From the sequence record OK272482.1: a stretch of DNA of 64,000 nt; one strand, given 5' to 3'. The notes under the pieces were generated by a model that was given only the letters and a program-made list of their open reading frames with translations, did no database searches and was not told the DNA's origin. This document shows, piece by piece, positions 6,652 to 34,007 of the stretch (position 1 is its first letter; each line of letters opens with the position of its first letter). The position numbers and the translations under genes are program-made. Source of the DNA: Escherichia phage JLBYU08.

Positions 6652-7641
6652 TTGACGATGATGACAAAGTTAACTCTTGAGCAAATTTTAACACTAAAGC
6701 AGCAGGGATACACTAATAGACAAATTGCTCGTGAATTTTTAGGCCGTGAGTCACGTGAGAGTTGGATCCGACTACAGCTTAAACGTGCACAAGAGAATAT
6801 GTCAGAGATTGTAGGAGAAGCAACGGAGCGCTTCCTTGAAGAACACAAAGGAGCTAAAGTTTGGGTGTATGATACAGAAACATCACCAACAAACGGCTGG
6901 TTCTTTGGGCACTATAAGACCAACATTCAAACCTGCGGTATTGAAATTATGCCCTATATGCTAACTTTCGCAGGTAAGTGGTTAGACAGTCCTAGTGTGG
7001 TTGACTGCGCTCTTCCCGATTACAAAATGTGGGATGAGGATATTCACAATGACCTCGAATTGATTCAGGACTTGTGGTATTATCTGGATAAATGTGATGT
7101 CGCAGTAGCCCACAATTCAGGTTTTGACTGTGGGTGGGCAAACCAACGATTTGCATTTCACGGGTTGCCTCCAACAAGCCCATACAAAGAGGTTGACACC
7201 CTTAAAATGATCAAGAAGGCATTCCGTTTGAATGCAAACACTTTGGAGTATGCATGCAAATACTTCCAACTTGCCAGACAGAAACTGATTGACCACACAT
7301 TTGAAATGTGGATCAAGTGTGTTCATGGTGATCTTGAGGCGTTTAAACAGATGCGGGAGTACAATGTTGGTGATATCCTATCTCTGGAAGGCCTGTATTT
7401 GCTGGCACGCCCGTTTGCTAAGCAGCACCCCAACATGTCATTGTACTACCAGGATGAGGAGCCAAAAGTTCGTTGCCCACGCTGCGGTGGAGAACACCTT
7501 CACGAGGAAGAAGCTTTGGCGTATACTCAACTGAGTGCATTTAAAACATATCGCTGCGAAGGTTGTGGATCTGTTGTTCGTGACCGTAACAACATCCGTA
7601 CCAGAGAAGAAATGAAAAACACCCTGATTAAGATAATCTAA
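6652..7641 (+). CDS. DnaQ-like 3'-5' exonuclease with C-terminal zinc ribbon
   Basis: VYDTETS (Exo I), VAHNSGFDCGW (Exo II), C-terminal CPRCGG...CEGCGS. Confidence 0.6.
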   Translation: MTMMTKLTLEQILTLKQQGYTNRQIAREFLGRESRESWIRLQLKRAQENMSEIVGEATERFLEEHKGAKVWVYDTETSPTNGWFFGHYKTNIQTCGIEIMPYMLTFAGKWLDSPSVVDCALPDYKMWDEDIHNDLELIQDLWYYLDKCDVAVAHNSGFDCGWANQRFAFHGLPPTSPYKEVDTLKMIKKAFRLNANTLEYACKYFQLARQKLIDHTFEMWIKCVHGDLEAFKQMREYNVGDILSLEGLYLLARPFAKQHPNMSLYYQDEEPKVRCPRCGGEHLHEEEALAYTQLSAFKTYRCEGCGSVVRDRNNIRTREEMKNTLIKII

Positions 7642-7687: not shown

Positions 7688-8506
7688 TTGAGCAAGAAAG
7701 AGTCCAACGACAAATATTACACAAACCCTGAGTATGCAGAATATCTTGTTGGTAAAGTAAAAGATAAGTATGGAAATTGTGCATACGTTGAGCCTTCTGC
7801 TGGAAGGGGTTCTTTTTCAAAACTATTTTCAGAGATACTGTCTTACGATCTAGTACCAGATCCTGAATTTGAAGGACCAACACCGTGCATTCAGGCAAAC
7901 TTCTTGGAGGTGCATCCCAAGGCAGATGTCTTCATAGGTAACCCACCATTTGGCAAGAATTCATCTTTAGCTTGCAAATTCTTTAACCATTGTGCATCAT
8001 TGCTAGAGCTTGGAGGGGCTATAGCCTTCATCTTGCCACGGACATTTGAAAAAATATTTTTTGCAAACAAACTGGACATGTCGATGCACCTTGTCTACAG
8101 TGAAAGGTGCCCTAAGAACTCGTTTCTACTTAATGGCAAACCTTATGACGTGCCGTGTGTTTTCCAAATTTGGGAGAAAAAGGCGTGCAACAGGGATCCT
8201 GTAGAGATTGGGGAGAATAAGTTATTTTCTTTTAGCACTCCAGATGACTACGACTTCTGTGTAAGACGTGTTGGGTATAATGCTGGAAAAGTATTGGGGG
8301 AGGATGACCCAAAATCTGAAGAATCAACATATTTCATAAAATCTTTAGTTGACGGTGTTGACAGAGTGTTTGCTGAATGCTATTCTTCTTTTCAAGAAGA
8401 AGCAGGTAAGACTGCCGGAATGAAGAGTATAGGTAAGAAAGAACTACAATACATTTTGGAGACTAGGTATGATCAAAAGCATAGACTTGACCAAAGAACT
8501 TACTGA
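7688..8506 (+). CDS. DNA N6-adenine methyltransferase
   Basis: Motif I VEPSAGRGSF then motif IV FIGNPPFG; start set at TTG 7688 after GGAGG (track start 7658 lies inside terminator hairpin). Confidence 0.6.
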   Translation: MSKKESNDKYYTNPEYAEYLVGKVKDKYGNCAYVEPSAGRGSFSKLFSEILSYDLVPDPEFEGPTPCIQANFLEVHPKADVFIGNPPFGKNSSLACKFFNHCASLLELGGAIAFILPRTFEKIFFANKLDMSMHLVYSERCPKNSFLLNGKPYDVPCVFQIWEKKACNRDPVEIGENKLFSFSTPDDYDFCVRRVGYNAGKVLGEDDPKSEESTYFIKSLVDGVDRVFAECYSSFQEEAGKTAGMKSIGKKELQYILETRYDQKHRLDQRTY

Positions 8507-8954: not shown

Positions 8955-9146
8955 ATGACACTAAAGTTAACAATTCCAGACAGCTTTTCAGAAGACTTTA
9001 TCCCAGAAATGATGGGTAAGATGCGATCATTGCTTGATCAGATCGAGGAAGCTGTTTGGGAAGACGATGCTGTAGTGGCTAACGAGCTGGTAGATAAGTG
9101 TAAAAGTATTATTGATGCAGTTGAAGAATACCACGGAGGTTTTTGA
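8955..9146 (+). CDS. hypothetical acidic protein
   Basis: ATG 8955 in frame with track ORF 8943. Confidence 0.4.
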   Translation: MTLKLTIPDSFSEDFIPEMMGKMRSLLDQIEEAVWEDDAVVANELVDKCKSIIDAVEEYHGGF

Positions 9147-9760
9147 TGGATATTATTGTTCTTAACGCCCCACCCAGCAGTGGTAAGGATCACATTGCAG
9201 ATCTCTTGTTGGAAGCTATTCCTAACTCACACCACCGTGAGGTTAAGGAGATGCTCTTCAGTGTGGCAATTAAGGCAGCTGGTGTAACTCCTCAACTCTG
9301 GAATGCACTTTATGACCGCCACTACAAAGAAGAGCCTTGCCCTTTCTTAATGATAGACGGCAAGCATGTTTCTCCGCGAGAATGGATGATCCATTGTAGT
9401 GAAAATCTGATTAAACCTATCTTTGGTGAAGATGCTTTCGGTAAAGCCGCAGTCGCATCTTTGAAGAAAGATTTCCCTAAAGGTAAAGGGGTTGTTGTTT
9501 ACTCCGATGGTGGATTCAAAGAGGAGCTGGCATGCCTTAGCGAGTACGCGTACAGCACAGGTGGAGATCTGTTGTTGTTCCGTATTCACCGTGTCGGATA
9601 TGACTGGGGAAATGATTCCAGAACCTATCTAAGTCTGGAAAAGAACGGAATAAAAGGAATTGAGTTCGATGTTGTAAACCCTGAAGGTGCACCTTGGGAA
9701 TGTGCATCGGAGATTGTGTGCAAGTATATTGATGCTAAAGAGGCCCAAGAAGAATGTTAA
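9143..9760 (+). CDS. P-loop kinase, dNMP kinase-like
   Basis: N-terminal NAPPSSGKDHIADLL resembles T4 gp1 LSGVKRSGKDTTADF. Confidence 0.5.
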   Translation: MMDIIVLNAPPSSGKDHIADLLLEAIPNSHHREVKEMLFSVAIKAAGVTPQLWNALYDRHYKEEPCPFLMIDGKHVSPREWMIHCSENLIKPIFGEDAFGKAAVASLKKDFPKGKGVVVYSDGGFKEELACLSEYAYSTGGDLLLFRIHRVGYDWGNDSRTYLSLEKNGIKGIEFDVVNPEGAPWECASEIVCKYIDAKEAQEEC

Positions 9761-10347
9761 TCGGTATTGATGTAGATTTGACACTGGTAGATTCAGGAAC
9801 AGCATGGTGGGAGTGGTTGGAGCGTTTATATGGTCCAGCCAGTAAGACAGTCACTAAACCTTCTAATGGGTTAATGTATTACGATCTGTCAAAGTATTGG
9901 CCTGATCGCCCCAAAGAAAACATCATAGGGCCTTTTGATTTCTGGAGTGACCCGTTCCTCTACGACTTTCTTAAGCCTGAAGAGGGGGCTATTGAGGTTA
10001 TGAAAGATTTGGTGGCTCGTGGTCACAAGCTTGCATTTATCTCGGTATGCAAGAAAGGTCACCTTGCATCTAAATCAAGGTTCTTAAAGCGTTGGACTAG
10101 TGATTTTATGGATCTGGACGATCACACCCAGGGTCACGGCTTCTACGCCACGCATTTCAAGGGAAATGTGGCTGTAGATGTTATAATTGACGACAGGCAT
10201 GAATACCTGAACCAATTCGCTTCACGCCCTGAAGTTATTAAAATCCTAAAAGATACGCCTTATGAGCAATTTGAGGAGTTAAAGGTTAGTGTTGACTATA
10301 CCGCTAATAGCTGGTATAAAATAGGAAAGTTTTTAGAAGGTATTTGA
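9754..10347 (+). CDS. HAD-superfamily phosphatase, 5'(3')-deoxyribonucleotidase-like
   Basis: HAD motif I GIDVDLTLV at N-terminus, IIDDR motif near C-terminus. Confidence 0.6.
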   Translation: MLIGIDVDLTLVDSGTAWWEWLERLYGPASKTVTKPSNGLMYYDLSKYWPDRPKENIIGPFDFWSDPFLYDFLKPEEGAIEVMKDLVARGHKLAFISVCKKGHLASKSRFLKRWTSDFMDLDDHTQGHGFYATHFKGNVAVDVIIDDRHEYLNQFASRPEVIKILKDTPYEQFEELKVSVDYTANSWYKIGKFLEGI

Positions 10348-10348
10348 A

Positions 10349-10549
10349 ATGGGCAGATGTTCTAAAGGTGGCGATCCTGTAGTCAGATACGGTGACTGGC
10401 TAGAGGTGTATGATCTGGGAGGTAAGCTGGTGTATGCCTCCAGGATCACCCAAGACATGTGCTCCGATATGTTCAACAGATACCTTGCATTTAAGGCCAA
10501 CATAAACCCAGACGAAATTTCCAAAATTAAAACAAGGAGAGCTAAATAA
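10349..10549 (+). CDS. hypothetical protein
   Basis: 66-aa ORF, stop overlaps thyX start. Confidence 0.4.
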   Translation: MGRCSKGGDPVVRYGDWLEVYDLGGKLVYASRITQDMCSDMFNRYLAFKANINPDEISKIKTRRAK

Positions 10550-11532
10550 TGCTAAAACTGTGCACTGCAAAGATCATTGCTGACAGCATTTCCGAGAAAG
10601 GTAAGCGCATCACAACTTTTGAGCTAGAGTATCCTCGAATTATTCACTCAGAGCTTATGACGCACCGAGTGTTCAGCCGAAACGCCATGTCTTCCCGTGC
10701 AGTGCCTGTCGGAAAGATGCTACAACAGATTGTGGAGAATCCGGCAATGCCAGTTCGCTTCGGTGTAAATAAGCGAGGAATGGAAGATGGTGGGGAACAC
10801 GATCAAAAGATCCGTGTAGAGTACACTGATATGGAGCTAACTCCGGAAGAGTTTTGGAAAGAAGCTGCAAAAAACGCCGCTTGGCATGCAGAGAAGTTTG
10901 CCCTTGCTGGTTACCATAAGCAAGTATGTAACCGCTTAGTGGAGCCTTTTCAGCGCATGAAAACAGTTGTAACAAGCACCGAGTGGAATAATTTTTTCCA
11001 CCTCCGTTGCTGGCACGATGCGGATCCTACGATTCAGATGTTAGCTAATTGTATGTGGGAGGCTCTTGTGAATAGCACTCCTGAAATCCTTAAACCGGGT
11101 CAATGGCACACTCCATATGTAGAGCACGTTTATTTGGACGGGGAGTTTAACTACGCTGTACGTGACACAGAAGGAAAGCTCTGCATTCTCGATACTAAAG
11201 AAGCTCTGTCTATCAGTGCTAGTTGCTGTGCACAAGTATCTTATCGAAATATTGACAGCACGTTTGAAAAGGCAGACAGTGTGGCTAAAAAATTGATTGG
11301 TGGGGATCGTATTCATGCAAGCCCTTACGAGCACCAGGCAACACCTATGGATCACGATAACGCAATGGAACGTTTAAACTACTACCTGTCTTCATGTGAA
11401 ATCACACAAGACATCAGTACTTGGCAGGAAGGTGTAACCCATCAAGACCGTGATGGTAAATTCTGGTCTGCCAACTTTTGTGGGTGGGTTCAGCACAGAC
11501 AACTGCTTAATAACCACTTCGTGAAAGGTTAA
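10549..11532 (+). CDS. thyX: flavin-dependent thymidylate synthase
   Basis: ThyX signature RHRxxxxxxxS (ELMTHRVFSRNAMSSRA). Confidence 0.8.
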   Translation: MLKLCTAKIIADSISEKGKRITTFELEYPRIIHSELMTHRVFSRNAMSSRAVPVGKMLQQIVENPAMPVRFGVNKRGMEDGGEHDQKIRVEYTDMELTPEEFWKEAAKNAAWHAEKFALAGYHKQVCNRLVEPFQRMKTVVTSTEWNNFFHLRCWHDADPTIQMLANCMWEALVNSTPEILKPGQWHTPYVEHVYLDGEFNYAVRDTEGKLCILDTKEALSISASCCAQVSYRNIDSTFEKADSVAKKLIGGDRIHASPYEHQATPMDHDNAMERLNYYLSSCEITQDISTWQEGVTHQDRDGKFWSANFCGWVQHRQLLNNHFVKG

Positions 11533-11561
11533 TCCTATCACAGCGATAGGTAACTTTTGTG

Positions 11562-11590
11562 TTGACTAATAGTATTAGATAATCTATAAT
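11562..11590 (+). promoter_or_regulatory. sigma70-like promoter (TTGACT-N17-TATAAT)
   Basis: Consensus hexamers in thyX-downstream intergenic. Confidence 0.55.
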
Positions 11591-11618
11591 AATGGCTCAC
11601 TTTGTTGGTGAGCCAGAA

Positions 11619-12092
11619 ATGGAGACAGATATGAGTAATGTTATGATTCCTAAAAAGACATTTATTTCAGTTACTTTGGATTTCCTATCTACCGTTCCCG
11701 GGTTTAACGTTCGCACACGAAACGGTCTCCGAGCTGCACTCTTTGCCGTAGGGTTTGATTTAAAAAGTATTGATGTTCTTCGTGGAAAAAACGTTCGATG
11801 CAAAAATAAGCCAACACATTATCGAAAGGCAGATGTATTTGCTGGTGTCATGCGTGCAGACTTTAGATACCCGCAAATGTATAACGGTGTAGATATTTTA
11901 GATGTGGATAAAGCACCTGGTGAGGCAATGCTTGTTCAAGATCTTCCGTATGATATTCCTGTAGAGGATCGTGTTAATGTAAGAAAGTATACAAAACAAT
12001 CTGAAAAGGCTGAAGATATTCATATTGTTGATGAACCTTTCAATTTTGAAGATCTGCATCGCCTGGAAAAATTATTCGGTATTGAAAGCTAA
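11619..12092 (+). CDS. hypothetical protein
   Basis: ORF; start set at first ATG downstream of promoter (alternative 11631). Confidence 0.45.
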   Translation: METDMSNVMIPKKTFISVTLDFLSTVPGFNVRTRNGLRAALFAVGFDLKSIDVLRGKNVRCKNKPTHYRKADVFAGVMRADFRYPQMYNGVDILDVDKAPGEAMLVQDLPYDIPVEDRVNVRKYTKQSEKAEDIHIVDEPFNFEDLHRLEKLFGIES

Positions 12093-12102
12093 GGTGGTGA
12101 AG

Positions 12103-12333
12103 ATGAGTCATAACTCCAAGTGGAAGGATCTTGGTTTTGCAAGTCGGTCAGAGTATGTTGGTTGGCTTTGGTTCAACGGCCTGACAAACGATATTAAAAT
12201 GTATGATGATGTTTATTATGACGAGTATACAGGCAAAATTATAAATATCTCTGTAGAAGAGGATACCTTTATCCAGCAAGATACTGATACCTGCCTTGAT
12301 AAATACGTTGATGAAGTGGAGGAAGCAAATTGA
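12103..12333 (+). CDS. hypothetical acidic protein
   Basis: ATG 12103 preceded by GGTGGTGAAG. Confidence 0.4.
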   Translation: MSHNSKWKDLGFASRSEYVGWLWFNGLTNDIKMYDDVYYDEYTGKIINISVEEDTFIQQDTDTCLDKYVDEVEEAN

Positions 12334-14645
12334 TCACCAAGGTAATTAAAAGCAACGGATGTGAAGTGGCATTCGATCCAGAACGTTTAAATAAGGCAGC
12401 TATTTTCGGTGACGACGGTAACGGCAATTGGTCACATATTGCACTGGATGCATACAAACGACTGTATGATGGATGTACAACCAAAGAAGTTAACCAAGCT
12501 ATCATAGACTCCTGTGTTAGCCGTAAAGACGAAGCACATTCCCGTATGGCTGGTCGTGTTCTTATTGGTCAGATTTATAAAGAGGCTTTTGGAGGGTTTA
12601 CAAAGATCCCTTCCTTACCATCATTTTACAACGACATGGTTGAGAAAGGGTATTGGGAGGATATGGGATATAGCTTTACCGAGCTAAACACTTTAGACGC
12701 TGTTATTGACCACAGTAAAGATCTCGGTTATGGCTATGCAGTCCTTAAACAGTTTCGCGACAAATACGGGATCAAGGATACTCTTAAAGACACCTTGTTT
12801 GAATCTCCCCAGATGATGTTTATGGGGATAGCAATGGCTGTCATGAAGAATATGCCGAAAGAACGTCGTATCAACGATGTTGTAAAATTATACACTTATC
12901 TGTCCGACTTAAAGATCAATGCCCCGACACCGTACTTAAACGGGCTGCGCACAGGTAAGACAGGGTATGCATCTTGTTGTGTAATAAAAGCTGACGATAC
13001 AGCAAAATCTATTGGTGTGGCACGTGAAGTTGCGTACACAATGACGGTTAACCAAGCAGGTATCGGCTACTATTTATCATCAAGATCTGCAGGTGATGGT
13101 GTTCGCGGTAACACTATTAAACACATGGGTAAGATTCCATATTATCGAGGTATTGATGCTGGTGTTAAGGAGAACAGACAACAATCACGTGGCGGTTCTG
13201 CAACAGTATCATTCCTTGCACTGGACCCGCAGATTGATGAGCTAATCCGTTTGAGAAACCCTATGACTGTTGCTTCAAAAAGAATCAACACCATGGACTA
13301 CTCCATCGGTATTAATAGGTCGTTTATCAACCGTGTGGCTAAGAATTTAGATTGGATGCTTGTTTCTTATAAGCACGCTCCTCAACTGCATGAGGGTATC
13401 TTCACCATGTCTATGGAGGAGTTCGATGCAGAGGTTGAGCGTATTGCTAAAGATGACAGTATTCCTAAGACATGGATCCGGGCTAGAGATCTTGCTGTTG
13501 AGCTGATCACGCAGCGTACTGAGGTGGGAAGGCTGTACGTATACTGGACAGATGAGATGAATAGACATACACCTTTTAAAGATGTGATCTATTCAAGCAA
13601 CCTGTGTGCAGAAATAGCCCTCCCGACAAAAGGCTATTCAGATATGCGTAATATCTTCAAGTACGATGTTGATGATGGTGAGGTTGCATTGTGCTTCCTG
13701 TCATCTCTTGTAGCTGGAAGGGTTACCCCAGAGGAGTATGAGGATGTTGCATACTACACGGTGCTTATGATTGACAATGTTATGGAAATCATGACATATC
13801 CGTATGAAAACATGGAGAGTACTGTTAAAAAACGCAGATCCATCGGGGTTGGCCTTACCAATGTTGCACATTTTATTGCCAGCCACAAGGTTACTTACGG
13901 ATCTCCTGAAAGTAAACAGCTTGTTCACGATCTTGCAGAACTTCACAGCTACAGCTTGCATAAGGCAAGTTTACGGTTGGCAAAAGAGCGTGGTGTCTGC
14001 GAGTGGATGTATAAAACAAAATATCCAGAAGGTTGGTTACCAATCGACACTTATAACAAAGAGGTCGATAGTGTGGTGAAAGATCCTTCTCTTAAACAGG
14101 ATTGGGAAGGGTTACGTAAAGAAATCATTGAAAATGGTGGGCTACGTAATAGCGTTCTTGAAGCATATATGCCTAATGAAAGCTCTTCGCTGGCAACAAA
14201 CACCACTAACGGGGTTTATCCTGTCCGTGAGCACATTATCTTTAAAAAGTCGCCACAAGGGCAGGTGCTGTTTATCGTTCCTGAATACGATGAGTTGAAA
14301 GAGTATTACACTTCGGCTTGGGACGTTGATACTAACGACATGATCGATATGTATGCTGTGATTCAAAAATTCACAGGTCAGGCAATCAGCGCGGATTTAT
14401 ACATAGACTACACCAAGTTGAAAGATGGTAAAATTTCAATGAAGGAGCAGCTAGGGTACCTTATCCGTGCCACTAAATTCGGGATGAAGACATGGTATTA
14501 TTTAAACTCTAGGGTTGGTGCTGGTGACTCCTTGGCAGAGGAACTTCATGCCAAGAAACAGGCTGAAGATGAAACCAGAAAGAACTATCCTTTGATTGCA
14601 GATAGTTCAGTTGAAGATCCGTATTGCGAAAGCTGTGCACTATAA
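12330..14645 (+). CDS. nrdA: ribonucleotide reductase class Ia large subunit
   Basis: ATP-cone at N-terminus, NLCAEI active-site block, C-terminal tail with Cys pair (CESCAL). Confidence 0.9.
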   Translation: MITKVIKSNGCEVAFDPERLNKAAIFGDDGNGNWSHIALDAYKRLYDGCTTKEVNQAIIDSCVSRKDEAHSRMAGRVLIGQIYKEAFGGFTKIPSLPSFYNDMVEKGYWEDMGYSFTELNTLDAVIDHSKDLGYGYAVLKQFRDKYGIKDTLKDTLFESPQMMFMGIAMAVMKNMPKERRINDVVKLYTYLSDLKINAPTPYLNGLRTGKTGYASCCVIKADDTAKSIGVAREVAYTMTVNQAGIGYYLSSRSAGDGVRGNTIKHMGKIPYYRGIDAGVKENRQQSRGGSATVSFLALDPQIDELIRLRNPMTVASKRINTMDYSIGINRSFINRVAKNLDWMLVSYKHAPQLHEGIFTMSMEEFDAEVERIAKDDSIPKTWIRARDLAVELITQRTEVGRLYVYWTDEMNRHTPFKDVIYSSNLCAEIALPTKGYSDMRNIFKYDVDDGEVALCFLSSLVAGRVTPEEYEDVAYYTVLMIDNVMEIMTYPYENMESTVKKRRSIGVGLTNVAHFIASHKVTYGSPESKQLVHDLAELHSYSLHKASLRLAKERGVCEWMYKTKYPEGWLPIDTYNKEVDSVVKDPSLKQDWEGLRKEIIENGGLRNSVLEAYMPNESSSLATNTTNGVYPVREHIIFKKSPQGQVLFIVPEYDELKEYYTSAWDVDTNDMIDMYAVIQKFTGQAISADLYIDYTKLKDGKISMKEQLGYLIRATKFGMKTWYYLNSRVGAGDSLAEELHAKKQAEDETRKNYPLIADSSVEDPYCESCAL

Positions 14646-14652
14646 TTTTAAA

Positions 14653-14672
14653 GGGGCTTCGGCCCCATTTTA
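14653..14672 (+). terminator. weak terminator/attenuator between nrdA and nrdB
   Basis: Hairpin GGGGC-TTCG-GCCCC then ATTTTA. Confidence 0.4.
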
Positions 14673-14683
14673 GAGGTAGAATA

Positions 14684-15772
14684 ATGGCTGTATTTAATGC
14701 TGAGAACACCGCTCATAAAACTGGTGACTATCCGCTGTTTCTGGGACAGCAAATGGGTATGTACGACTCTATCAACAAAAAATATCCACAACTGTTTGAA
14801 CTATACAAAAAACAAAAAGAGCAAGATTGGGCAGAGGATGAAGTGGATTTGTCGCAATCTATTTCAGATTTTGTAACATGCTCAAAGTCAACTTATGACG
14901 TGATGGTGCAGACCTTGATGTGGCAATGGGAGGCTGATAGCGTTGCGGCAAGATCGATCATCTGCCTCTTTTCACCATTCATCACTAATAGTGAGCTTTT
15001 CACTCTATTGATGAAACAGTCAGAGATTGAAGTTCTTCACGCACTAACTTACTCAGAGATTGTTAGACAATGCCTCCCCAATGCCCGTGAGATTATAGAA
15101 GAGATTCAGGAAAACCAAAACGTTCTGAGCAGATCCGGCGTTATTGTCAAATACATGCAAGAGCTTGAGGTTATTGGTGCAAAATACCGACTGGATCCTT
15201 CTAGTGTTGAAGAAGATATTGTGCGGAAATGCATTCTTAGAGCGCTTTTTGCACTTTTAGCCCTGGAAAGTATTGAGTTTATTGCAAGTTTTGCATGCAC
15301 TTTCGCAGTAGCTGAACAGGGTATTTTTGTTCAGGTGGCGCAGCTTGTTCAAAAAATCATGCTTGACGAAATGCTACATTCGAAAGGTGATTTTGCCATC
15401 ATTGATATCTTGCTTAACGATCCCGCATGGGAGAAAAGCTTCCTGGAGATAAAAGGGGAGTTAAAAGAGATTCTTGATGAAGTACGAACCAAAGAGTACG
15501 GTTGGAGTGACTATATTTTCAGCGAAGGAAGAGCGATTATAGGTCTTAACTCACCGTTGCTTAAAGAATGGGTTGACTATAACTGTTCACCGATTTATGA
15601 TTACTACGACATCGACAAAGACTTTGTGCCGCCAACAAAGGACCCGCTACCGTTTATGCAGGTGTGGATGAAACCTTCATTGCAACAGACGGCGAACCAA
15701 GAAATGTCGAACACTGACTACCGCGTCAACACAACTGTTAACGACGCTGAAGAAGAAATTTGGGAGTTTTAA
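14684..15772 (+). CDS. nrdB: ribonucleotide reductase class Ia small subunit
   Basis: Ferritin-like di-iron protein follows nrdA; RBS GAGG before ATG 14684; C-terminal acidic tail (EEEIWEF). Confidence 0.85.
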   Translation: MAVFNAENTAHKTGDYPLFLGQQMGMYDSINKKYPQLFELYKKQKEQDWAEDEVDLSQSISDFVTCSKSTYDVMVQTLMWQWEADSVAARSIICLFSPFITNSELFTLLMKQSEIEVLHALTYSEIVRQCLPNAREIIEEIQENQNVLSRSGVIVKYMQELEVIGAKYRLDPSSVEEDIVRKCILRALFALLALESIEFIASFACTFAVAEQGIFVQVAQLVQKIMLDEMLHSKGDFAIIDILLNDPAWEKSFLEIKGELKEILDEVRTKEYGWSDYIFSEGRAIIGLNSPLLKEWVDYNCSPIYDYYDIDKDFVPPTKDPLPFMQVWMKPSLQQTANQEMSNTDYRVNTTVNDAEEEIWEF

Positions 15773-15775
15773 TAT

Positions 15776-16054
15776 ATGAGCTGCGAAAAATCTTTTTTCA
15801 TCATCATTTACGGTAAGGATAACTGCCCACATTGTGTCAGAGCAAAAGAATTTGCAATCAGCAAAGGTCTGCCTTTTGTATATAAGACACTTGGCGAGGG
15901 ATACACAAAAGAAGAGCTTATTGAGAAGTGTAGTCCAATCGTCCCCAGAACGTTGCCGCAGATCTTCTTAGAAAGCGATCTTGACAGTATCCATATAGGC
16001 GGTGCCGACGATTTCATCTCTTTTGTTAAGAATGGTTTTGGAGAGAAAAAGTGA
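15776..16054 (+). CDS. glutaredoxin/thioredoxin-like redoxin
   Basis: CPHC active site in MSCEKSFFIIIYGKDNCPHCVRAKE; sits between nrdB and nrdD. Confidence 0.75.
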   Translation: MSCEKSFFIIIYGKDNCPHCVRAKEFAISKGLPFVYKTLGEGYTKEELIEKCSPIVPRTLPQIFLESDLDSIHIGGADDFISFVKNGFGEKK

Positions 16055-18174
16055 AAGTTGTAAAACGGGACGGTAGAGAAGAGTTCTATAACGGAATTAA
16101 GGTGATCAAGGCGGCAGAGTCCGCCTTACTTGAGTCTGGACATACTGAAGAAGAAGCTTACCGGATCGCTTGTGCGGTTAATGAAGTTGTTGCTAACAAT
16201 CTACCAACCGACCAGTGCACGATCTCTGTAAAAAATATCCATATCCTTGTTGAAGATGCTCTTATGGATATGGGTTTAAAATGTGCAGCCAGAGAATACA
16301 TCCAGTATAGACAGACAAGAGATAATAACAGAGAGGCAGGTGGAAAACTGCTTGCAGATATTAGTGGCTTCTTGGATCGAACTTGTGATGAATTTACAAA
16401 AGAAAACGCAAATAAGCCTACCAATCATGTACACACTCATCGTGACCTGCTTGCAGGCATCCTTAGCAAACACCTTGCATCAACACAGATCCTGCCAGAC
16501 CGTGTCTCAGAAGAGCACAATAAAGGCTTCATCCATGTGCATGATCTTGACTACTTGATCAGTCCGTTAACAAACTGTTGTTTGGTAAATTATCCAGATA
16601 TGTTGGAAAACGGATTCAACATTGGTAACGCCCATGTCAGTAAGCCGAAGTCAATAGGGGTTGCAACAACAATCCTTAGCCAAATCTCTAGTGCGGTAGC
16701 TAGTGCTCAATATGGGGGTCAGACTATGAGCCATATTGATCATTATCTGGCACAGTATGCTGAGGCGACTTATGAGAAGAACCTTAAATTTTGCCAGGAA
16801 CATTGGTTGCCAGATGCTGAGACTGTTGCAATGCAGATGACAGATAAAGACGTATTTGACAGCATGCAGACTTTACTCTATCAAATCAATACGTTAACTT
16901 CTGTCAACGGGCAAACCCCATTCATCACATTAAGTTTAGGTCTGGACACCTCAGTCTTTGGTAGAATGATTACCAAAAACTACTTGAAAGTCCACAAAAT
17001 GGGTCTTGGTGAAGAACGTATCACACCTGTGTTCCCTAAAGTGTTGTTCTTCCTAGAAGAGGGTGTCAACATGAACCCTGGAGATCCTAACTATGATTTG
17101 AAACGATTAGCTCTGGAATGCTCTGCAGAGCGGATTTATCCTGACTTTGTTTCTGTTCCACTAAATCGTAAAGTGACAGGCTCGACAGATGGTAAAGTAA
17201 CGAGCATGGGTTGCCGGAGTTTTCTTAGCAAATACAATGACTTGGAAACAGGCGAGGAGAAATACCTTGGCAGATTTAACTTAGGCGTTGTTAGCCTTAA
17301 TCTGCCAATGATTGCGGCAAAAGCTAAAACGGAAGGTGTTGATTTCTTTGCAGTTCTTGACGAATACCTAGATCTTGCATACGAGGCTCACCTTGTAAGG
17401 GTTGATCGTCTAAAAGGGACAAAGGCAGGGCAGAACCCTATCATGTGGTGTGAAGGCGCTCTTGCTCGCCTGGACCCTGAAGAGAGTATTGATAAACTCT
17501 TCTACGACGGGTACGCTTCCATCAGTATTGGGTATATTGGTGTGTATGAAACCTGTCAGATTTTGGGCAGGGAGGGTGACAAGGCTTTAGCTCTTGGAAT
17601 ACTTCAGCACATGAGAGATGCTTGTGAGAGATACAAGAAGGAAAGTAGACTAGCGTTTAGCTTGTACGGCACCCCTTCTGAGAGTCTATGCTATAAAGCT
17701 GCAACCTGTCTGGATCGTGAATATCCTGAAGTGTTGAAGCACGAGCATGAATATCTCACCAACAGTTTCCATCAGCCAGTATGGATCAATAGCTCTCCTT
17801 TTGATAAGTGGGAGTATGAGGAAGGTTTTGCTATGATCTCCTCTGGTGGCAACATCGGATACGTAGAGACACCAAATCTGAAAAAAAACTTAGATGCTTT
17901 GGAAGCTCTTGTTGATTTCGGATATAAACACATTATGTATTTTGGTATCAACCAGCCTGTGGATAAATGTCTCAAGTGTGGTTTCTCTGGTGAGTTCAGT
18001 GCAACAGCTAAAGGCTTTGTATGCCCAGAGTGTGGAAACCATGAAGAGGGAACGATCAGCGTAATTCGACGTGTGTCTGGATACCTTTCCAGTCCTAACT
18101 CTCGTCCTTACAATAAAGGTAAGCAAGCGGAAGTTATCGAGCGAGTTAAGCACTACGGAAGTTGTGGTTGCTGA
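16051..18174 (+). CDS. nrdD: anaerobic ribonucleotide reductase class III
   Basis: N-terminal ATP-cone, C-terminal glycyl-radical motif RRVSGYL and zinc ribbon CLKCG...CPECG. Confidence 0.9.
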   Translation: MKVVKRDGREEFYNGIKVIKAAESALLESGHTEEEAYRIACAVNEVVANNLPTDQCTISVKNIHILVEDALMDMGLKCAAREYIQYRQTRDNNREAGGKLLADISGFLDRTCDEFTKENANKPTNHVHTHRDLLAGILSKHLASTQILPDRVSEEHNKGFIHVHDLDYLISPLTNCCLVNYPDMLENGFNIGNAHVSKPKSIGVATTILSQISSAVASAQYGGQTMSHIDHYLAQYAEATYEKNLKFCQEHWLPDAETVAMQMTDKDVFDSMQTLLYQINTLTSVNGQTPFITLSLGLDTSVFGRMITKNYLKVHKMGLGEERITPVFPKVLFFLEEGVNMNPGDPNYDLKRLALECSAERIYPDFVSVPLNRKVTGSTDGKVTSMGCRSFLSKYNDLETGEEKYLGRFNLGVVSLNLPMIAAKAKTEGVDFFAVLDEYLDLAYEAHLVRVDRLKGTKAGQNPIMWCEGALARLDPEESIDKLFYDGYASISIGYIGVYETCQILGREGDKALALGILQHMRDACERYKKESRLAFSLYGTPSESLCYKAATCLDREYPEVLKHEHEYLTNSFHQPVWINSSPFDKWEYEEGFAMISSGGNIGYVETPNLKKNLDALEALVDFGYKHIMYFGINQPVDKCLKCGFSGEFSATAKGFVCPECGNHEEGTISVIRRVSGYLSSPNSRPYNKGKQAEVIERVKHYGSCGC

Positions 18175-18237
18175 TTCTTGACAAAAGCCACAAGGATGTG
18201 GCATATTATTGACACACAGTGAGCTAGGAGGTGCAGT

Positions 18238-18354
18238 ATGTCATCAGGTATTTATAAAATTTGCAAGTGCGGCTGTAGTTGTAATCTTCGTTGGTGCAAG
18301 GCACTAGACGATTTTATTTGGCATTGCCCTAAATGTGATGCGGAGTATCTATGA
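18238..18354 (+). CDS. 38-aa zinc-ribbon micro-protein
   Basis: Strong RBS AGGAGG 8 nt before ATG; CKCGCSC...CPKCD; stop overlaps nrdG start (ATGA). Confidence 0.45.
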   Translation: MSSGIYKICKCGCSCNLRWCKALDDFIWHCPKCDAEYL

Positions 18355-18824
18355 ACATTGCTGGATACACAGAAATATCTTACACCGAAGGACCAGGTAT
18401 TAGAACTGCCTTGTGGGTATCTGGGTGCCCACACGCTTGCCATGGTTGCTTTAATCAGGCATTTTGGTCAAAAGATAAGGGGAGGAAGTTCACTGAAGAA
18501 GACTTGCAAAAAATCTTGTCAGATTTAGATAACCCGTTTGTGTGCGGTATCTCTCTACTGGGTGGAGAACCCTTAGCATACTATAATGAGCCAGATATTA
18601 TTAGCCTGATGGAGAAAATTAAGGAAAAATTTGGTGACAAGAAAACTATTCTTGTATATACTGGGTTCACATTTGACCATATCTCTAGTGATGTTCTTAA
18701 ACTGGCTGATATCATCATTGACGGTAAGTATGTAAAAGATTTACCAACCAAGAAACCGTTCCGAGGCAGTGATAACCAAAGAATGTTTAAAAAAGTATCA
18801 GGCGGTTGGGTTCAGGTAGACTAG
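18351..18824 (+). CDS. nrdG: anaerobic RNR activating enzyme (radical SAM)
   Basis: CPHACHGCFN cluster motif; directly after nrdD. Confidence 0.85.
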   Translation: MNIAGYTEISYTEGPGIRTALWVSGCPHACHGCFNQAFWSKDKGRKFTEEDLQKILSDLDNPFVCGISLLGGEPLAYYNEPDIISLMEKIKEKFGDKKTILVYTGFTFDHISSDVLKLADIIIDGKYVKDLPTKKPFRGSDNQRMFKKVSGGWVQVD

Positions 18825-18827
18825 TTG

Positions 18828-18857
18828 TTGACAAAGCTTTGTTGAGTTGGTTATAAT
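18828..18857 (+). promoter_or_regulatory. sigma70-like promoter (TTGACA-N17/18-TATAAT)
   Basis: AGTTGTTGACA -35 context shared with promoter at 20219. Confidence 0.55.
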
Positions 18858-19385: not shown

Positions 19386-20174
19386 ATGGGTCGAGCTAAA
19401 GAAACAAAACGCATGCGTGATGAAGCTAGAGAGGCTCGCAAATCTGATCGCCTGCGTAAGGCTGCTGAGAAATTTGCTGACGAAAGAGAGCACACCGCTC
19501 CAGCTCTCCGACCAATGAATAAGAAGCAGCAAAAGTATCTTGATTATCTAGGGTCACGTAAGATTATTATTGTAAACGGTGTGTTTGGATCCGGTAAGAC
19601 ATTCATGGCATCTGCATATGCAGGTGATCTTCTGCGTAAGAACGAGATTGATAAGATTATTGTTGCACGTCCTTACGTTCAGACAGGAAAGACTTCAGGA
19701 TTTAAACCTGGAAATGCAATGCAGAAACTGTGGCCCTATCTTCGAAGCATGATGGACACGATTTGTCGTCGTGTTGGCAAAGGTGCTTTTGCCGCAATGC
19801 TGGGAGACGGTCAGAACAGCCGTATCGAGATTTGTGAAGTTGAAAGCATTCGTGGTCGTAGTTTCGATGAGCGATGCTTTGTCCTGATTGACGAGGCACA
19901 GCAAACTAACCCTGAAGAAATGTTGTCAATTATCACAAGGATCTCTGATCAAGCCACCCTTGTAATTATGGGTGATAATAGCCAACGTGACATCCCTGGT
20001 AAATCTGGCCTTGCATGGGTGACGGATTTCTTTACTCGTCATCCAGATCCTGAGGTTGGAATGATCAGCTTTGATAGTCCAGACGATGTCGTTCGTTCTG
20101 GGTTGGGTCGTCAGATCGCACTCAATCTTATTGAGGATCGTGCAAATCATATTTGGACCCCTGTTTCCGAGTAA
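19386..20174 (+). CDS. phoH: PhoH-like ATPase
   Basis: Walker A GVFGSGKTF and PhoH-like layout. Confidence 0.85.
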   Translation: MGRAKETKRMRDEAREARKSDRLRKAAEKFADEREHTAPALRPMNKKQQKYLDYLGSRKIIIVNGVFGSGKTFMASAYAGDLLRKNEIDKIIVARPYVQTGKTSGFKPGNAMQKLWPYLRSMMDTICRRVGKGAFAAMLGDGQNSRIEICEVESIRGRSFDERCFVLIDEAQQTNPEEMLSIITRISDQATLVIMGDNSQRDIPGKSGLAWVTDFFTRHPDPEVGMISFDSPDDVVRSGLGRQIALNLIEDRANHIWTPVSE

Positions 20175-20647: not shown

Positions 20648-21697
20648 ATGAATTTAACACCTCGCAGAACCATGGTACACGGCATGAAAGAAAAACAGAA
20701 CGGTTTCGAACCTATGAGTAATAAAATGTTTGGTATGCCGGGCGGTATCATGGAAACATACAGCTACCCAACACCTGTTGTTGACCACGTTCTTTATATC
20801 GACGATTTGGAAGACTTACAAGATCATATGTCTCGTCTGCAGACGATCCGTATGGCTCAGCCGGAAGAAAGCATTCGGGTGATCATCAATAGCACTGGGG
20901 GTTGCGTGCACATTGCAATGGCTTATCTGCAGGCATTCCGAGAGTCTCAGGCAAGCGTTGTTGCACATGCTGAAGGGATGTGCTGCTCTGCTGGAACAAT
21001 CTTATGGCTTGGTTGTAAAGAACGTACTGTGGCTCCGGACACAGAGTTTATGTTCCACTACTATCAAGGTGGCACTTATGGTAACGGTGTGAACATGAAT
21101 ACTCAGGTCAGCTACTGGAAAAAACGTTTTGAACGCCTGATCGAAAAATACTACGGTGGGGTGCTGACAGAAGATGAGATCGCATCCATCACAGCTGGTG
21201 GCGAAGTGTGGTTGGACGGAGAAGAGCTGGCAGCACGCACTGGAGCTATTATTCTGGATGAAGGCAACATACAACGCATCCAGAACGGACAAAAACCGAA
21301 AAATCTTCTGGCAAAAGGTGATGAAGAAGGCGTGTTAGGTGAAGCAGGTCTTCCGGAGATTCACCAGTGCACATCTTTAGATGAGTTAGTTCATGCTGTT
21401 GAATCTGCAAAAGCGGGTGGTTCGAAAGGTGATGTTCACACTGTGTTCCTGAATCTGCAGATGGAAAGTGGCGAGACCGTCAGAATTGCCCTGAGTGAGA
21501 TTACTTCAGAAGATCTGCAGAGATTCTCTGTCGTTGAACTTCAGGATATTCTGTCTCAATTGAAGACTACTCTGAACGGCGGTGAAGAGGTTAAGGTGAA
21601 AGATAAGACTCGCAAGCGTCTGGTGGACAATATTATTAAAACAGCAAAAGAGCTCAATGAAAAAATCCTGGGTGCAGGAATTGTCGAAGAAGCTTAA
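20648..21697 (+). CDS. ClpP-like serine protease with C-terminal extension
   Basis: GMCCSAGT (ClpP Ser block GQAASMG analogue) and FMFHYYQGG (His block); about 150 aa acidic C-terminal extension. Confidence 0.6.
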   Translation: MNLTPRRTMVHGMKEKQNGFEPMSNKMFGMPGGIMETYSYPTPVVDHVLYIDDLEDLQDHMSRLQTIRMAQPEESIRVIINSTGGCVHIAMAYLQAFRESQASVVAHAEGMCCSAGTILWLGCKERTVAPDTEFMFHYYQGGTYGNGVNMNTQVSYWKKRFERLIEKYYGGVLTEDEIASITAGGEVWLDGEELAARTGAIILDEGNIQRIQNGQKPKNLLAKGDEEGVLGEAGLPEIHQCTSLDELVHAVESAKAGGSKGDVHTVFLNLQMESGETVRIALSEITSEDLQRFSVVELQDILSQLKTTLNGGEEVKVKDKTRKRLVDNIIKTAKELNEKILGAGIVEEA

Positions 21698-31822: not shown

Positions 31823-32074
31823 ATGATGAAGATTGACTTAAATGCCGGAGACCATGTTGTTGTCAAATGCATCGGAGATTATCTTGGATTCACAATCGGC
31901 AATACTTACGAGGCGGTAGTGGCGAAGGTTTACCATGATAAAGTCCTCAGTCTTGTATTTGACTGCGATGATGATGGGGATGACCGATACGTCTGTGAGG
32001 TGCTGGCACGAGACGATAGTGAAGACCAGAAATTCCTGGTTATTGAACTGAACGGTATTTTTGTAGAACGTTAA
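31823..32074 (+). CDS. hypothetical acidic protein
   Basis: RBS AAGGAG before ATG 31823. Confidence 0.45.
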   Translation: MMKIDLNAGDHVVVKCIGDYLGFTIGNTYEAVVAKVYHDKVLSLVFDCDDDGDDRYVCEVLARDDSEDQKFLVIELNGIFVER

Positions 32075-32102
32075 TTTAAAACAACATAAGGAGACTCTTA
32101 CT

Positions 32103-32408
32103 ATGGCTAAATCTAAAGTTGAACTGTTCACCTCTCTTCCTTCTGACACTGCAGAACGTGATCGCCTTCGCAAAACAATCGAAGAACTGGTGGAACTCCA
32201 ACTTCAGATTAAAGATCTGAAAGATGCCATCAAGGATATCATTCTTGTTGAGAAGCAGGATCATCTGTATTCTCCTAAATTCATCAAATCTCTGGTGGCT
32301 ACCGAGTTCGATATTCGATATGAGGCTGAAAAACGTCGAGCTAAAATCGAAGAAGAGGTTGAGCACATGTCCGAGGCAGACATTCTGTTCAAACGCTCTG
32401 TAGAATAA
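32103..32408 (+). CDS. hypothetical coiled-coil protein
   Basis: RBS AAGGAGA; helical, charged. Confidence 0.45.
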   Translation: MAKSKVELFTSLPSDTAERDRLRKTIEELVELQLQIKDLKDAIKDIILVEKQDHLYSPKFIKSLVATEFDIRYEAEKRRAKIEEEVEHMSEADILFKRSVE

Positions 32409-32463
32409 TGACAAAGAGAGGGGCTTGGGCCCCTCTTTTTACTATCTATGAAGGAGATTTGAG

Positions 32464-32790
32464 ATGGGTATACCGATCACTGTAAAAGAATTGAATGAAC
32501 GTGATGCAGGCGGTCTATGGCCTGCACGAAAAATACGCTGTGTCTACATGAAAGAGAATCTTGAACATCTTGATCAACAGATCAAGGTCGGTGATATTTT
32601 CGAGGTCTTCTATTCCAATCGTCGCAACTGGGAAACCATTCAACCTTCTGGTTTTGTTCTTGCCAAACTTGACACTGGAGAAGTGATTATCCCAGGGTTG
32701 GATATTGTCTTCGAAATTATCCAGGAGTGGGATCCGGATAAGATTAGATACGAAGAGTTATTCGGTAAAGGTATTATCAAACCTGCGTGA
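32464..32790 (+). CDS. hypothetical protein
   Basis: RBS GAAGGAG before ATG. Confidence 0.45.
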   Translation: MGIPITVKELNERDAGGLWPARKIRCVYMKENLEHLDQQIKVGDIFEVFYSNRRNWETIQPSGFVLAKLDTGEVIIPGLDIVFEIIQEWDPDKIRYEELFGKGIIKPA

Positions 32791-32798
32791 GGTGGATT

Positions 32799-33098
32799 AT
32801 GTCTACAAAGGCGGCTAAATACTCCTACATGCCATCAACCTCTGCAGAGGTAGACTTTAGTTTCGATGTGTTTCCACTGTTTGAGGTGGTTCTGGCATAC
32901 CCAACAATACTATCTACTCCCGAATCACTTGTGCCTGTTAAGTTGCAGAACGCTATGCATTCTATGCACTACAACAATAAATGTAGGCACAGATGGTGTC
33001 AGGACGGGGAAAAAGATCTGGATAGTTTGAGAGATTTTGACAGTCACCTTTTGACACCTTTCAGCTACTCCAACCTTGATAAGCCCTCGTGGGTATAG
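32799..33098 (+). CDS. hypothetical protein
   Basis: ATG 32799 in frame with track ORF. Confidence 0.4.
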   Translation: MSTKAAKYSYMPSTSAEVDFSFDVFPLFEVVLAYPTILSTPESLVPVKLQNAMHSMHYNNKCRHRWCQDGEKDLDSLRDFDSHLLTPFSYSNLDKPSWV

Positions 33099-33123
33099 CA
33101 AAATATCAAATTTAAGACACCTA

Positions 33124-33150
33124 GGACGCTCTGTGGCGTCCTTTTCTTTA
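33124..33150 (+). terminator. rho-independent terminator
   Basis: Hairpin GGACGC-TCTGTG-GCGTCC followed by TTTTCTTTA. Confidence 0.65.
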
Positions 33151-33311
33151 TCTAGTGCACGATTGCATACCTTGGACAGGTAATCTCATTACAGAGCGTT
33201 TAAGAGCTTTCTGCAAACAACTCCATATTTCGAGCGTAGCGAGAACGCACGTCCGTTTTGACCCAAATCACCATACGCTCGGATTTTAACCAAACCCTCG
33301 CGGCGTTTCTG

Positions 33312-33340
33312 TTGACACATTACCGCCCTCGTGATATTAT
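33312..33340 (+). promoter_or_regulatory. sigma70-like promoter (TTGACA-N17-TATTAT)
   Basis: Consensus hexamers. Confidence 0.55.
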
Positions 33341-33458
33341 CCACACATCGTTTAGAGAATATAGGATACACAATGAGAACATTGTCCGAAGTTTTAGTGG
33401 TGATCCTGATGATCATTACGTCCATAGCGGCTGTTGCCGGAATACTCACGGGTGGAAC

Positions 33459-33671
33459 ATGATCAACACACCTGTATCTGAAGAGACATTCAAAGAAGTG
33501 ACCATATGTCCCTTGGCTGAGCCAGGGAAAGAGGAAAACTTCGATTCTGAAGATTCTCCATCTTCGCTACAGGTAGATCCTGAGGCTGATGACCTGACGT
33601 GGGAGGACATCGTAGATATCTGGTTCTCTATTATGCCTGAGCACGAAGAGTTCAGGGGTGGTAGACTATGA
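33459..33671 (+). CDS. hypothetical acidic protein
   Basis: ATG 33459 downstream of promoter; track ORF start lies upstream of promoter. Confidence 0.4.
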   Translation: MINTPVSEETFKEVTICPLAEPGKEENFDSEDSPSSLQVDPEADDLTWEDIVDIWFSIMPEHEEFRGGRL

Positions 33672-33791
33672 AGCACCGAGCACACACAGGTTCCTCATGC
33701 TAAAGCATGGCCTGAAGAGGCAAACGTGCATAATTCCTGTGCATTGTGACGTATAAAACCCGTCCACACTCTCATTTTCAGAGGAGATTTC

Positions 33792-34007
33792 ATGAAGATA
33801 GAAATATTTGGTGGAGCTGACAACACTCGTGGCCTGATTTACCTTGAATTCGATGAATCATACCTGCCAGAGGTGTTAAATATAGACTCTGTTGCGGAGG
33901 CTTTGGGAGTAAACCCTAAAGAACTCCACTCTTGTGCTGAGATCGATGGTTGGGAAGAGACCATGAACATTGATTTCAGTGAAGTAGAGGATGAACCGCT
34001 GGACTGA
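33792..34007 (+). CDS. small acidic protein, MKIEI paralog family; last gene of plus-strand arm
   Basis: RBS AGAGGAGA; MKIEIFGGAD... Confidence 0.5.
   Translation: MKIEIFGGADNTRGLIYLEFDESYLPEVLNIDSVAEALGVNPKELHSCAEIDGWEETMNIDFSEVEDEPLD

Follow-up and report, generated by a model that had tools for sequence, protein, structure and literature searches.

A conserved nucleotide-metabolism gene block with aerobic and anaerobic ribonucleotide reductases in the rV5-like Escherichia phage JLBYU08

The gene block and its source

Escherichia phage JLBYU08 (sequence record OK272482.1) was analysed over a stretch of 64,000 nucleotides (nt), called the window below. Positions 9143-18824 of the window hold a block of 9682 nt with eight genes of nucleotide metabolism. 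They encode a deoxyribonucleoside monophosphate (dNMP) kinase-like protein, a HAD nucleotidase, a ThyX-like homologue of the flavin-dependent thymidylate synthases, the class Ia (aerobic) ribonucleotide reductase (RNR) NrdA/NrdB with a glutaredoxin, and the class III (anaerobic) RNR NrdD with its activase NrdG. Sequence comparison makes it very probable that the block represents the conserved nucleotide-metabolism genes of Vequintavirus, the rV5-like virulent myoviruses of E. coli.

The block is 99.9% identical over its entire length to Escherichia phage EdH4 (Vequintavirus murica), whose feature table transfers one-to-one to the window coordinates. On the strength of this identity and map, the window is placed in Vequintavirus, as part of a virulent E. 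coli myovirus of the rV5-like type. There are 123 phage records at least 90% identical to the block, nearly all of them from rV5-like E. coli phages, and 115 phage records span at least 80% of it. The gene order is kept at 95-99% identity across more than 100 genomes, and the gene set matches the annotations of the relatives. The closest relatives (98-99.9% identity) are Escherichia phages. Such a host agrees with a preliminary description of this DNA, which had deduced a facultatively anaerobic host from the gene content, since E. coli is a facultative anaerobe.

Open reading frames (ORFs) were listed over 7.5-21 kb, and their starts, stops and spacing were then inspected. Family calls relied on Pfam, NCBIfam, PHROG and PDB matches and on Rfam at gathering thresholds, and the Pfam and NCBIfam bit scores were compared with the curated cut-offs. 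The profile searches matched the expected families for all eight genes named in the preliminary description, at the positions and on the + strand given there, and its span brackets exactly the first to the last of them. The eight genes had also been called contiguous. They are co-directional and each is uninterrupted, yet they are contiguous in a loose sense only, with four further ORFs interspersed (Table 1). All eight named ORFs are full length with respect to their nearest homologues. For NrdA, NrdB, glutaredoxin, NrdD and NrdG the family matches are strong and exceed curated cut-offs, which makes these five identities unambiguous; the kinase-like, HAD and ThyX-like calls are weaker and were examined in more depth.

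Table 1. Genes and putative transcription signals of the block, in window coordinates
Feature	Position	Strand	Remarks
dNMP kinase-like P-loop protein	9146-9760	+	204 aa from ATG 9146, the start annotated in relatives; ORF begins with TTG 9143
HAD 5'(3')-deoxyribonucleotidase, NT5C family (predicted)	9754-10347	+	197 aa
ORF without assigned function	10349-10549	+	66 aa; PHROG 4903 (unknown function), 5.6e-35; no Pfam match
ThyX-like flavin-dependent thymidylate synthase homologue	10549-11532	+	327 aa
Terminator-like hairpin	11534-11550	+	in the 98-nt gap after thyX
Sigma-70-like promoter match TTGACT-17 nt-TATAAT	11562-11590	+	same 98-nt gap past thyX; consensus scan
ORF without assigned function	11631-12092	+	153 aa; PHROG 5557 (unknown function), 8.3e-75; no Pfam match; hypothetical in relatives
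ORF without assigned function	12103-12333	+	76 aa; PHROG 5488, 7.8e-41; no significant Pfam match
NrdA, class Ia RNR alpha	12330-14645	+	771 aa; TTG start
GC-rich hairpin GGGGC-TTCG-GCCCC, then ATTTT	14653-14666	+	in the 38-nt nrdA-nrdB gap; putative terminator in EdH4
NrdB, class Ia RNR beta	14684-15772	+	362 aa
Glutaredoxin	15776-16054	+	92 aa; stop overlaps nrdD start by 4 nt
NrdD, class III anaerobic RNR	16051-18174	+	707 aa; GTG start
Cys-rich ORF (MSSGIYKICKCGCSCNLRWCKALDDFIWHCPKCDAEYL)	18238-18354	+	38 aa; PHROG 20137, 4.7e-30; no Pfam match
NrdG, radical-SAM activase of NrdD	18351-18824	+	157 aa
Perfect sigma-70 consensus TTGACA-18 nt-TATAAT (12/12 positions)	18828-18857	+	in the 62-nt gap directly after nrdG; downstream block edge

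The aerobic reductase and its glutaredoxin

NrdA is matched by Pfam Ribonuc_red_lgC (3.5e-100), with both the Pfam barrel and all-alpha domains recognised, and its TIGR02506 score of 500 bits exceeds the cut-off of 341. Residues 12-735 match E. coli NrdA (8e-132) with the catalytic residues aligned. C426, C216/C455, N424 and E428 correspond to E. coli C439, C225/C462, N437 and E441, and the WYYL segment at 722-725 (Y723/Y724) aligns with the LYYQ of E. coli, which holds the radical-transfer pair Y730/Y731. The C-terminal shuttle cysteine pair is present as CESC at 766-769, a CxxC arrangement, whereas the E. coli pair is Cx4C.

NrdB is recognised by Pfam Ribonuc_red_sm (8e-30). Its top NCBIfam model is the class Ia NrdB family NF006576 (5e-44), and its top PDB matches are class Ia NrdB proteins (1e-33) with aligned ligand motifs. 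The di-metal ligands D85, E116/H119, E195 and E229/H232 fall on the class Ia motifs, the radical tyrosine is Y123, four residues past H119, and the C-terminal tyrosine lies in DYRV at 345-348. The glutaredoxin exceeds the cut-off of Pfam Glutaredoxin (3.4e-08). Its top NCBIfam family is GrxA (4e-14), with the GrxA models under their equivalog cut-offs, and among PDB entries it is closest to E. coli glutaredoxin 1 (1ego, 1.4e-10). It carries the motifs CPHC (17-20), TLP (59-61) and GGADD (75-79). For NrdA, NrdB and glutaredoxin alike, the E. coli protein is the top or near-top solved match and the catalytic residues are kept.

The N-terminal region of the phage NrdA differs from that of E. coli NrdA and is unrecognised by Pfam as an ATP-cone (E<=0.01). 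The NF006578 alignment starts at residue 4 and the alignment with E. coli NrdA at residue 12, and VIKSNG stands in place of VTKRDG. Where E. coli has R10, E15 and H59, residues with roles given in the E. coli literature, the phage protein aligns S, V and N. Because the ATP-cone is unrecognised and the three positions are substituted, feedback of dATP on the aerobic NrdA may be relaxed. The N-termini of the two reductases contrast in this respect: NrdD (16051-16330) has a canonical ATP-cone with VKRDG (Pfam 4e-13), and none is recognised in NrdA (12330-12650).

The anaerobic reductase and the cysteine-rich reading frame

NrdD is matched by Pfam NRDD (6.5e-161), together with the Gly_radical and ATP-cone domains, the latter at the N-terminus. 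With NF006732 it reaches 826 bits, where the cut-off is 657, and T4 NrdD (1h78), the closest solved structure, is matched at 2.5e-166. The alignment with the T4 protein places the motifs NCCLV (C176/C177), MGCRS (C388), CLKC (640-643), CPEC (658-661) and RVSGY (674-678), among which CLKC and CPEC form the zinc ribbon and RVSGY is the glycyl-radical motif. NrdG is matched by Pfam Fer4_12 (4e-42) and Radical_SAM, exceeds the cut-off of TIGR02491 (149.5 vs 126.1 bits) and carries CPHACHGC (Cx3Cx2C) at residues 26-33.

Between the two genes lies the ORF of 38 codons, whose product has eight cysteines, including a CPKC motif. An AGGAGG Shine-Dalgarno sequence stands upstream of it, and its stop overlaps the ATG of nrdG. 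The ORF is conserved as PHROG 20137, being annotated in phages nomo and HeinrichReichert and left unannotated in EdH4. Such a small cysteine-rich protein might bind zinc and act together with NrdG or NrdD.

The dNMP kinase-like protein and the deoxyribonucleotidase

The first two genes of the block are published as "hypothetical" or "P-loop NTPase". Single-sequence PDB searches with either protein returned nothing significant, and profiles or predicted structures were required. The kinase-like protein matches PHROG 139 "dNMP kinase" (9e-45) and has the P-loop PPSSGKD at residues 9-15, ending in GKD. Its predicted fold is that of a dNMP kinase, and the closest fold is T4 gp1. These matches support the assignment of the product as a T4-gp1-like dNMP kinase.

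The HAD protein is matched by Pfam NT5C nearly over its full length, at 4e-06 and 27.3 bits, just above the cut-off of 24.8. A family profile built from 29 relatives out of 454 clusters matched the mitochondrial deoxyribonucleotidase 1mh9 (1e-12) and the bacterial homologue 3bwv (2e-12), with values for mdN, cdN and 3bwv ranging from 1e-12 to 1e-06. NT5C was matched by 28 of the 29 family members, at best with 2e-21. The nucleophile motif DxDxT appears as DVDLT (6-10) and the DD motif as IIDDR (144-148). All members share D6, D8, D147 and R148, and at least 90% of them also keep D146. The phage protein thus shares both motifs with the mammalian NT5C enzymes mdN and cdN, even though its single-sequence Pfam score is barely over the cut-off, and an assignment as an NT5C-type 5'(3')-deoxyribonucleotidase is supported.

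The ThyX-like protein and its segment order

The ThyX-like protein is recognised by Pfam Thy1 (3e-09, 37.4 bits vs a cut-off of 24.8) in an alignment which covers profile positions 60-190 only, on residues 23-178 of 327. Its score with the NCBIfam equivalog TIGR02170 is 40 bits, under the cut-off of 87.9. The predicted model has the ThyX fold, and a search of a viral structure library with this model returned only phage "thymidylate synthase" entries. The ThyX motif appears as THRVFSRNAMS at residues 38-48, in which HR(x7)S is kept. The first arginine of the canonical motif is replaced by threonine, and this threonine is invariant in 22 members of the family. Likewise invariant across the family are A, A and T at the positions of Thermotoga maritima E86, Y91 and R165. 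The residues aligned to ThyX H79, R80, S88, R90, R174 and H53 are retained. In one search the family matched more than 7,500 clusters (90% identity), mostly on phage-sized contigs of about 130-150 kb.

The order of the segments along the chain is apparently non-canonical, with the N-terminal segment of canonical ThyX (21-61) aligning to residues 222-264 of the phage protein. A profile of the 22 family members searched against the PDB matched T. maritima ThyX out of order (E 0.64), in the pieces 224-267 to ThyX 21-62, 20-50 to ThyX 60-90 and 126-175 to ThyX 152-201. Residues of the relocated segment that are invariant in the family, A228-Q-V-S231 and H256-A-S-P-(F/Y)-E-H262, have counterparts at nearly equal spacing in the canonical enzyme (A27-R-V-S30 and H53-E-x-P-F-E-H59). 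Profile-profile comparison with a tandem canonical ThyX alignment, one of low diversity, gave a single collinear alignment of query 23-270 to template 77-308 with a score of 37.5, which exceeds that of the separate pieces (30.6 and 21.5). The C-terminal half alone scored 30.3 against the canonical N-terminal segment (P 7e-4), a value above that of every one of 1000 column-shuffled controls, whose scores averaged 13.9 and peaked at 29.8.

The Pfam match also grows, to profile positions 15-185 and 39.3 bits, when residues 206-268 are moved ahead of residue 18. The gain over the controls is about 3-6 bits, since a more loosely re-ordered construct reached 36.4 and a reversed-segment control 33.6, and lends the permutation weak support. 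The C-terminal half by itself has no Pfam Thy1 match, a single-sequence PDB search with the protein returned nothing significant, and in places within that half the predicted model has a predicted local distance difference test score (pLDDT) <50.

Such features distinguish the phage protein from the canonical enzymes T. maritima TM0449, Mycobacterium tuberculosis Rv2754c and PBCV-1 A674R. The latter have about 220 residues and an arginine at the head of the motif, and in all solved enzymes the helix-helix-HxxP(F/Y)EH segment precedes the motif. In the phage protein the segment lies some 200 residues past the motif, and the chain is extended at its C-terminus by a conserved tail of 60 residues. 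On these comparisons, the chances are about even that the ThyX fold of this family has undergone a circular permutation, or a rebuilding through partial duplication. No description of a permuted ThyX was found in the searchable literature, which returned only unrelated uses of "permutation".

Introns and empty homing sites

No Rfam RNA family, the group I introns (RF00028) included, was found at gathering thresholds within 9143-18824. The scan gave a single hit in the whole window, a group I intron of 72.5 bits on the - strand (56419-56707), and an 809-aa ORF with a weak match to DNA_pol_A, the family-A polymerase, ends within it. The preliminary description had contrasted intron-free nucleotide genes with an interrupted polymerase, and both parts hold for this window. 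The absence of introns is a property of this isolate and does not extend to the lineage, in which 42 related records carry an insert in nrdD.

The polymerase intron itself has no ORF and lies in the family-A DNA polymerase gene, with the 5' exon ORF at 56692-59121. The polymerase of EdH4 is annotated as a single uninterrupted coding sequence of 2778 nt despite 99.9% identity in the module, so this intron is probably polymorphic among the relatives.

The alignments of phages nomo, ECML-10 and HeinrichReichert to the window break at 16910/16911 in nrdD. The inserts found there in the relatives are of two kinds, a 797-bp form that encodes an HNH endonuclease and an ORF-less form of 257 bp. In the phage collection the long form occurs in 28 records and the short one in 14, about a third of the relatives together. 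The insert site is the codon boundary between Gly287 and Gln288, at window positions 16911/16912, and it is empty here. As read from the sequence, the proposed splice boundaries (exon end U, insert end G) restore the codons of Asn-Gly/Gln-Thr. Rfam at gathering thresholds recognised no intron in the inserts, and Intron_gpI (RF00028) appeared, at 29.8 bits, only when the 257-nt HeinrichReichert insert was scanned permissively. The inserts are called "group I-like" rather than proven introns because this score is under the cut-off of 50.

A further site lies in the nrdD-nrdG spacer (window 18203-18226), where ECML-10 has a 1.2-kb gene for a T5orf172/treble-clef endonuclease; this site is likewise empty in JLBYU08. 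The window thus differs from such rV5-like relatives in that its nrdD allele has no intron and its nrdD-nrdG spacer is empty. Related elements have been described elsewhere: phage CB7 of the Vequintavirinae has spliced HNH-bearing introns in nrdA and nrdB (PMC7344957), and T4 nrdD carries a mobile group I intron (PMC1865063).

Packing and transcription signals

The genes are arranged in tight sub-blocks with overlapping or abutting stops and starts: orf63-kinase-HAD-orf66-thyX, orf153-orf76-nrdA, nrdB-grx-nrdD and orf38-nrdG. For instance, the 66-aa ORF starts 1 nt from the HAD gene and overlaps thyX by 1 nt, and the stop of the 76-aa ORF and the start of nrdA share 4 nt. Since the overlaps are so tight, translational coupling within the sub-blocks is suggested.

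The larger gaps hold candidate transcription signals (Table 1). The hairpin between nrdA and nrdB looks like a putative terminator or attenuator, and in the 63-nt gap after nrdD a hairpin overlaps a promoter-like site. From these signals we infer that the block is probably split into about four transcription units, so that its description as contiguous does not extend to a single unit.

Proposed working of the block

From the gene identities and motifs we infer the enzymatic activities, electron donors and substrate cycle as follows. In the presence of oxygen, NrdA and NrdB (class Ia, with a di-iron tyrosyl radical) would reduce ribonucleoside diphosphates (NDPs) to deoxyribonucleoside diphosphates. 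The C-terminal CESC of NrdA would then be re-reduced by the adjacent glutaredoxin 1-like CPHC protein with host glutathione as the donor. In the absence of oxygen, NrdD would use its glycyl radical to reduce ribonucleoside triphosphates to deoxyribonucleoside triphosphates (dNTPs), once activated by the radical-SAM (S-adenosylmethionine) enzyme NrdG. The ThyX-like flavoprotein would convert dUMP to dTMP, sparing the capacity of dihydrofolate reductase (DHFR). The T4-gp1-like kinase would phosphorylate dNMPs, both new dTMP and those salvaged from host DNA, and the NT5C-type phosphatase would strip selected dNMPs. Such a pair may act as a substrate cycle, which trims the pool or sets its composition.

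In this scheme the host would supply dUMP, NDP kinase, glutathione, formate, flavodoxin and SAM. Annotation look-ups, as distinct from exhaustive profile scans, turned up no dUTPase, dCMP/dCTP deaminase, DHFR or NDP kinase, either within the block itself or among the EdH4 features examined, which cover roughly the extent of the window. Therefore the module is host-dependent, and the earlier wording "self-contained" is overstated: the look-ups yielded no enzyme producing dUMP and no NDP kinase, and the NT5C member is catabolic, hydrolysing dNMPs. The choice of ThyX rather than ThyA had also been read as a sign of replication across oxygen regimes. ThyX chemistry requires no DHFR, and the choice bears on folate economy and is uninformative on oxygen.

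Alternative explanations

Several observations weigh against a working pathway of dNTP synthesis. No activity measurement for proteins of this lineage was found in the literature, four ORFs of the block have no assignable function, and the N-terminal region of NrdA is not reported as an ATP-cone. The ThyX-like protein falls short of its equivalog model, has lost the first motif arginine and has an apparently altered segment order. Finally, promoters and terminators were called from consensus matches alone, with 35 promoter-like sites against 26.4 expected by chance. A possible, if somewhat doubtful, explanation is that the block is no functional module. In this scenario it consists of syntenic early and middle genes in several independent units, and the kinase and nucleotidase serve in salvage or pool-sanitising of the breakdown products of host DNA rather than in de novo dNTP synthesis. 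The terminator- and promoter-like signals past thyX, nrdA, nrdD and nrdG would fit such an arrangement, as would the four unrelated small ORFs, the catabolic NT5C enzyme and the separability of the class III genes, which may be lacking in other Vequintavirinae, with only 2 members of Certrevirus having them (PMC7344957). The conservation of gene order across the relatives argues for a functional block, and so does the clustering of the same functions in many phages reported in the rV5 paper (PMC3606486). Independent units with a role in salvage complement the proposed dNTP-synthesis pathway more than they exclude it. That nrdD and nrdG are decaying, non-working passengers in this phage is very improbable. 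The nrdD genes of relatives are often hit by selfish inserts and the pair is absent from some Vequintavirinae, yet the NrdD reading frame is full length, its glycyl-radical motif, both catalytic cysteine sites, zinc ribbon and ATP-cone are intact, the Cx3Cx2C of NrdG is retained, and the cut-offs of both NF006732 and TIGR02491 are exceeded. With all motifs of NrdD and NrdG intact, decay was rejected.

The product of the ThyX-like protein has to be weighed separately. Its THR(x7)S in place of RHR(x7)S, the invariant A/A/T at the E86/Y91/R165 positions, the low equivalog score and the apparently permuted order could all indicate an enzyme which is not a dTMP synthase, such as a flavin-dependent C5-pyrimidine methylase acting on another substrate (as PolB on UMP) or the maker of a different modified nucleotide. 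Such a function is unlikely. The residues aligned to H79, R80, S88, R90, R174 and H53 of ThyX are kept, and the annotations of the relatives, over the stretch examined, show neither ThyA nor another thymidylate synthase. In addition, the Vequintavirinae are reported to be exceptionally susceptible to restriction-modification systems, which speaks against bulk hypermodification of pyrimidines (PMC8594841). A hypermodified base as the product is considered unlikely on the same ground, and given this sensitivity ordinary dTMP is the likeliest product.

Neighbouring genes and other observations

Directly downstream of the block lies a gene for a PhoH-like ATPase (19386-20174, +; Pfam 3.6e-47), followed by a homologue of ClpP-like proteases (20648-21697, +; 1.2e-11). 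The adjacency of phoH to phage RNR genes has previously been noted in T5 and ICP1. Upstream, a 329-aa protein (6652-7641, +) has a weak RNase_T-like exonuclease match and a C-terminal zinc ribbon, and a 272-aa protein (7688-8506, +), without a Pfam match, is annotated in the relatives as a putative N6-adenine methyltransferase. The guanine-cytosine skew of the window turns from positive to negative near 32000-34000, where the genes switch from the + to the - strand, a divergent or convergent boundary of transcription. Nineteen unannotated "Campylobacter phage" records (MG0656xx) are 97.7-98.1% identical to the module. Their host labels look doubtful, and they perhaps represent contaminating coliphage in the preparations.

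Relation to known systems and significance

The same genes, order and annotations are found in rV5, EdH4, Murica, nomo and HeinrichReichert at 95-99.9% nucleotide identity. Among the gene products reported for rV5 are RNR subunits of both the anaerobic and the aerobic enzyme (gp109-112 and gp117) and a thymidylate synthase, gp106 (PMC3606486). The paper on CB7 gives the same functional reading, with glutaredoxin supporting the class I RNR, and reports that class III genes can be absent from Vequintavirinae (PMC7344957). Dwivedi et al. 2013 found class I and III together in 27% of RNR-encoding phages and in most phages of facultative anaerobes, and phoH adjoining the RNR genes (PMC3653736). Therefore the block, and the ecological reading of its class I and III reductases, are already known. 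The present analysis re-describes an annotated block of a much-sequenced phage genus, and its oxygen-regime reading was published in 2013.

The logic of the block is shared with T4, whose nrdA, nrdB, nrdC, nrdD, nrdG, td and gene 1 likewise combine RNRs of classes Ia and III, a redoxin, a thymidylate synthase and a dNMP kinase. In T4, whose genes lie scattered, ThyA (td) works alongside a phage-encoded DHFR, dCMP hydroxymethylase and dCTPase. In contrast, the genes of JLBYU08 are clustered and include a ThyX-type enzyme and an NT5C nucleotidase, and no DHFR was found.

Beyond the known block, two genes listed publicly as "hypothetical" can now be assigned with support, one to the T4-type dNMP kinases and the other to the NT5C deoxyribonucleotidases. 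In this isolate the homing site in nrdD is unoccupied, which makes it a natural partner of the insert-bearing relatives for homing experiments. ThyX is a drug-target family, and a natural permuted variant would be of interest to enzymologists. If the permutation is real, these phages would carry a structural class of flavin-dependent thymidylate synthase that has so far gone unrecognised, and its active site or oligomer may be remodelled.

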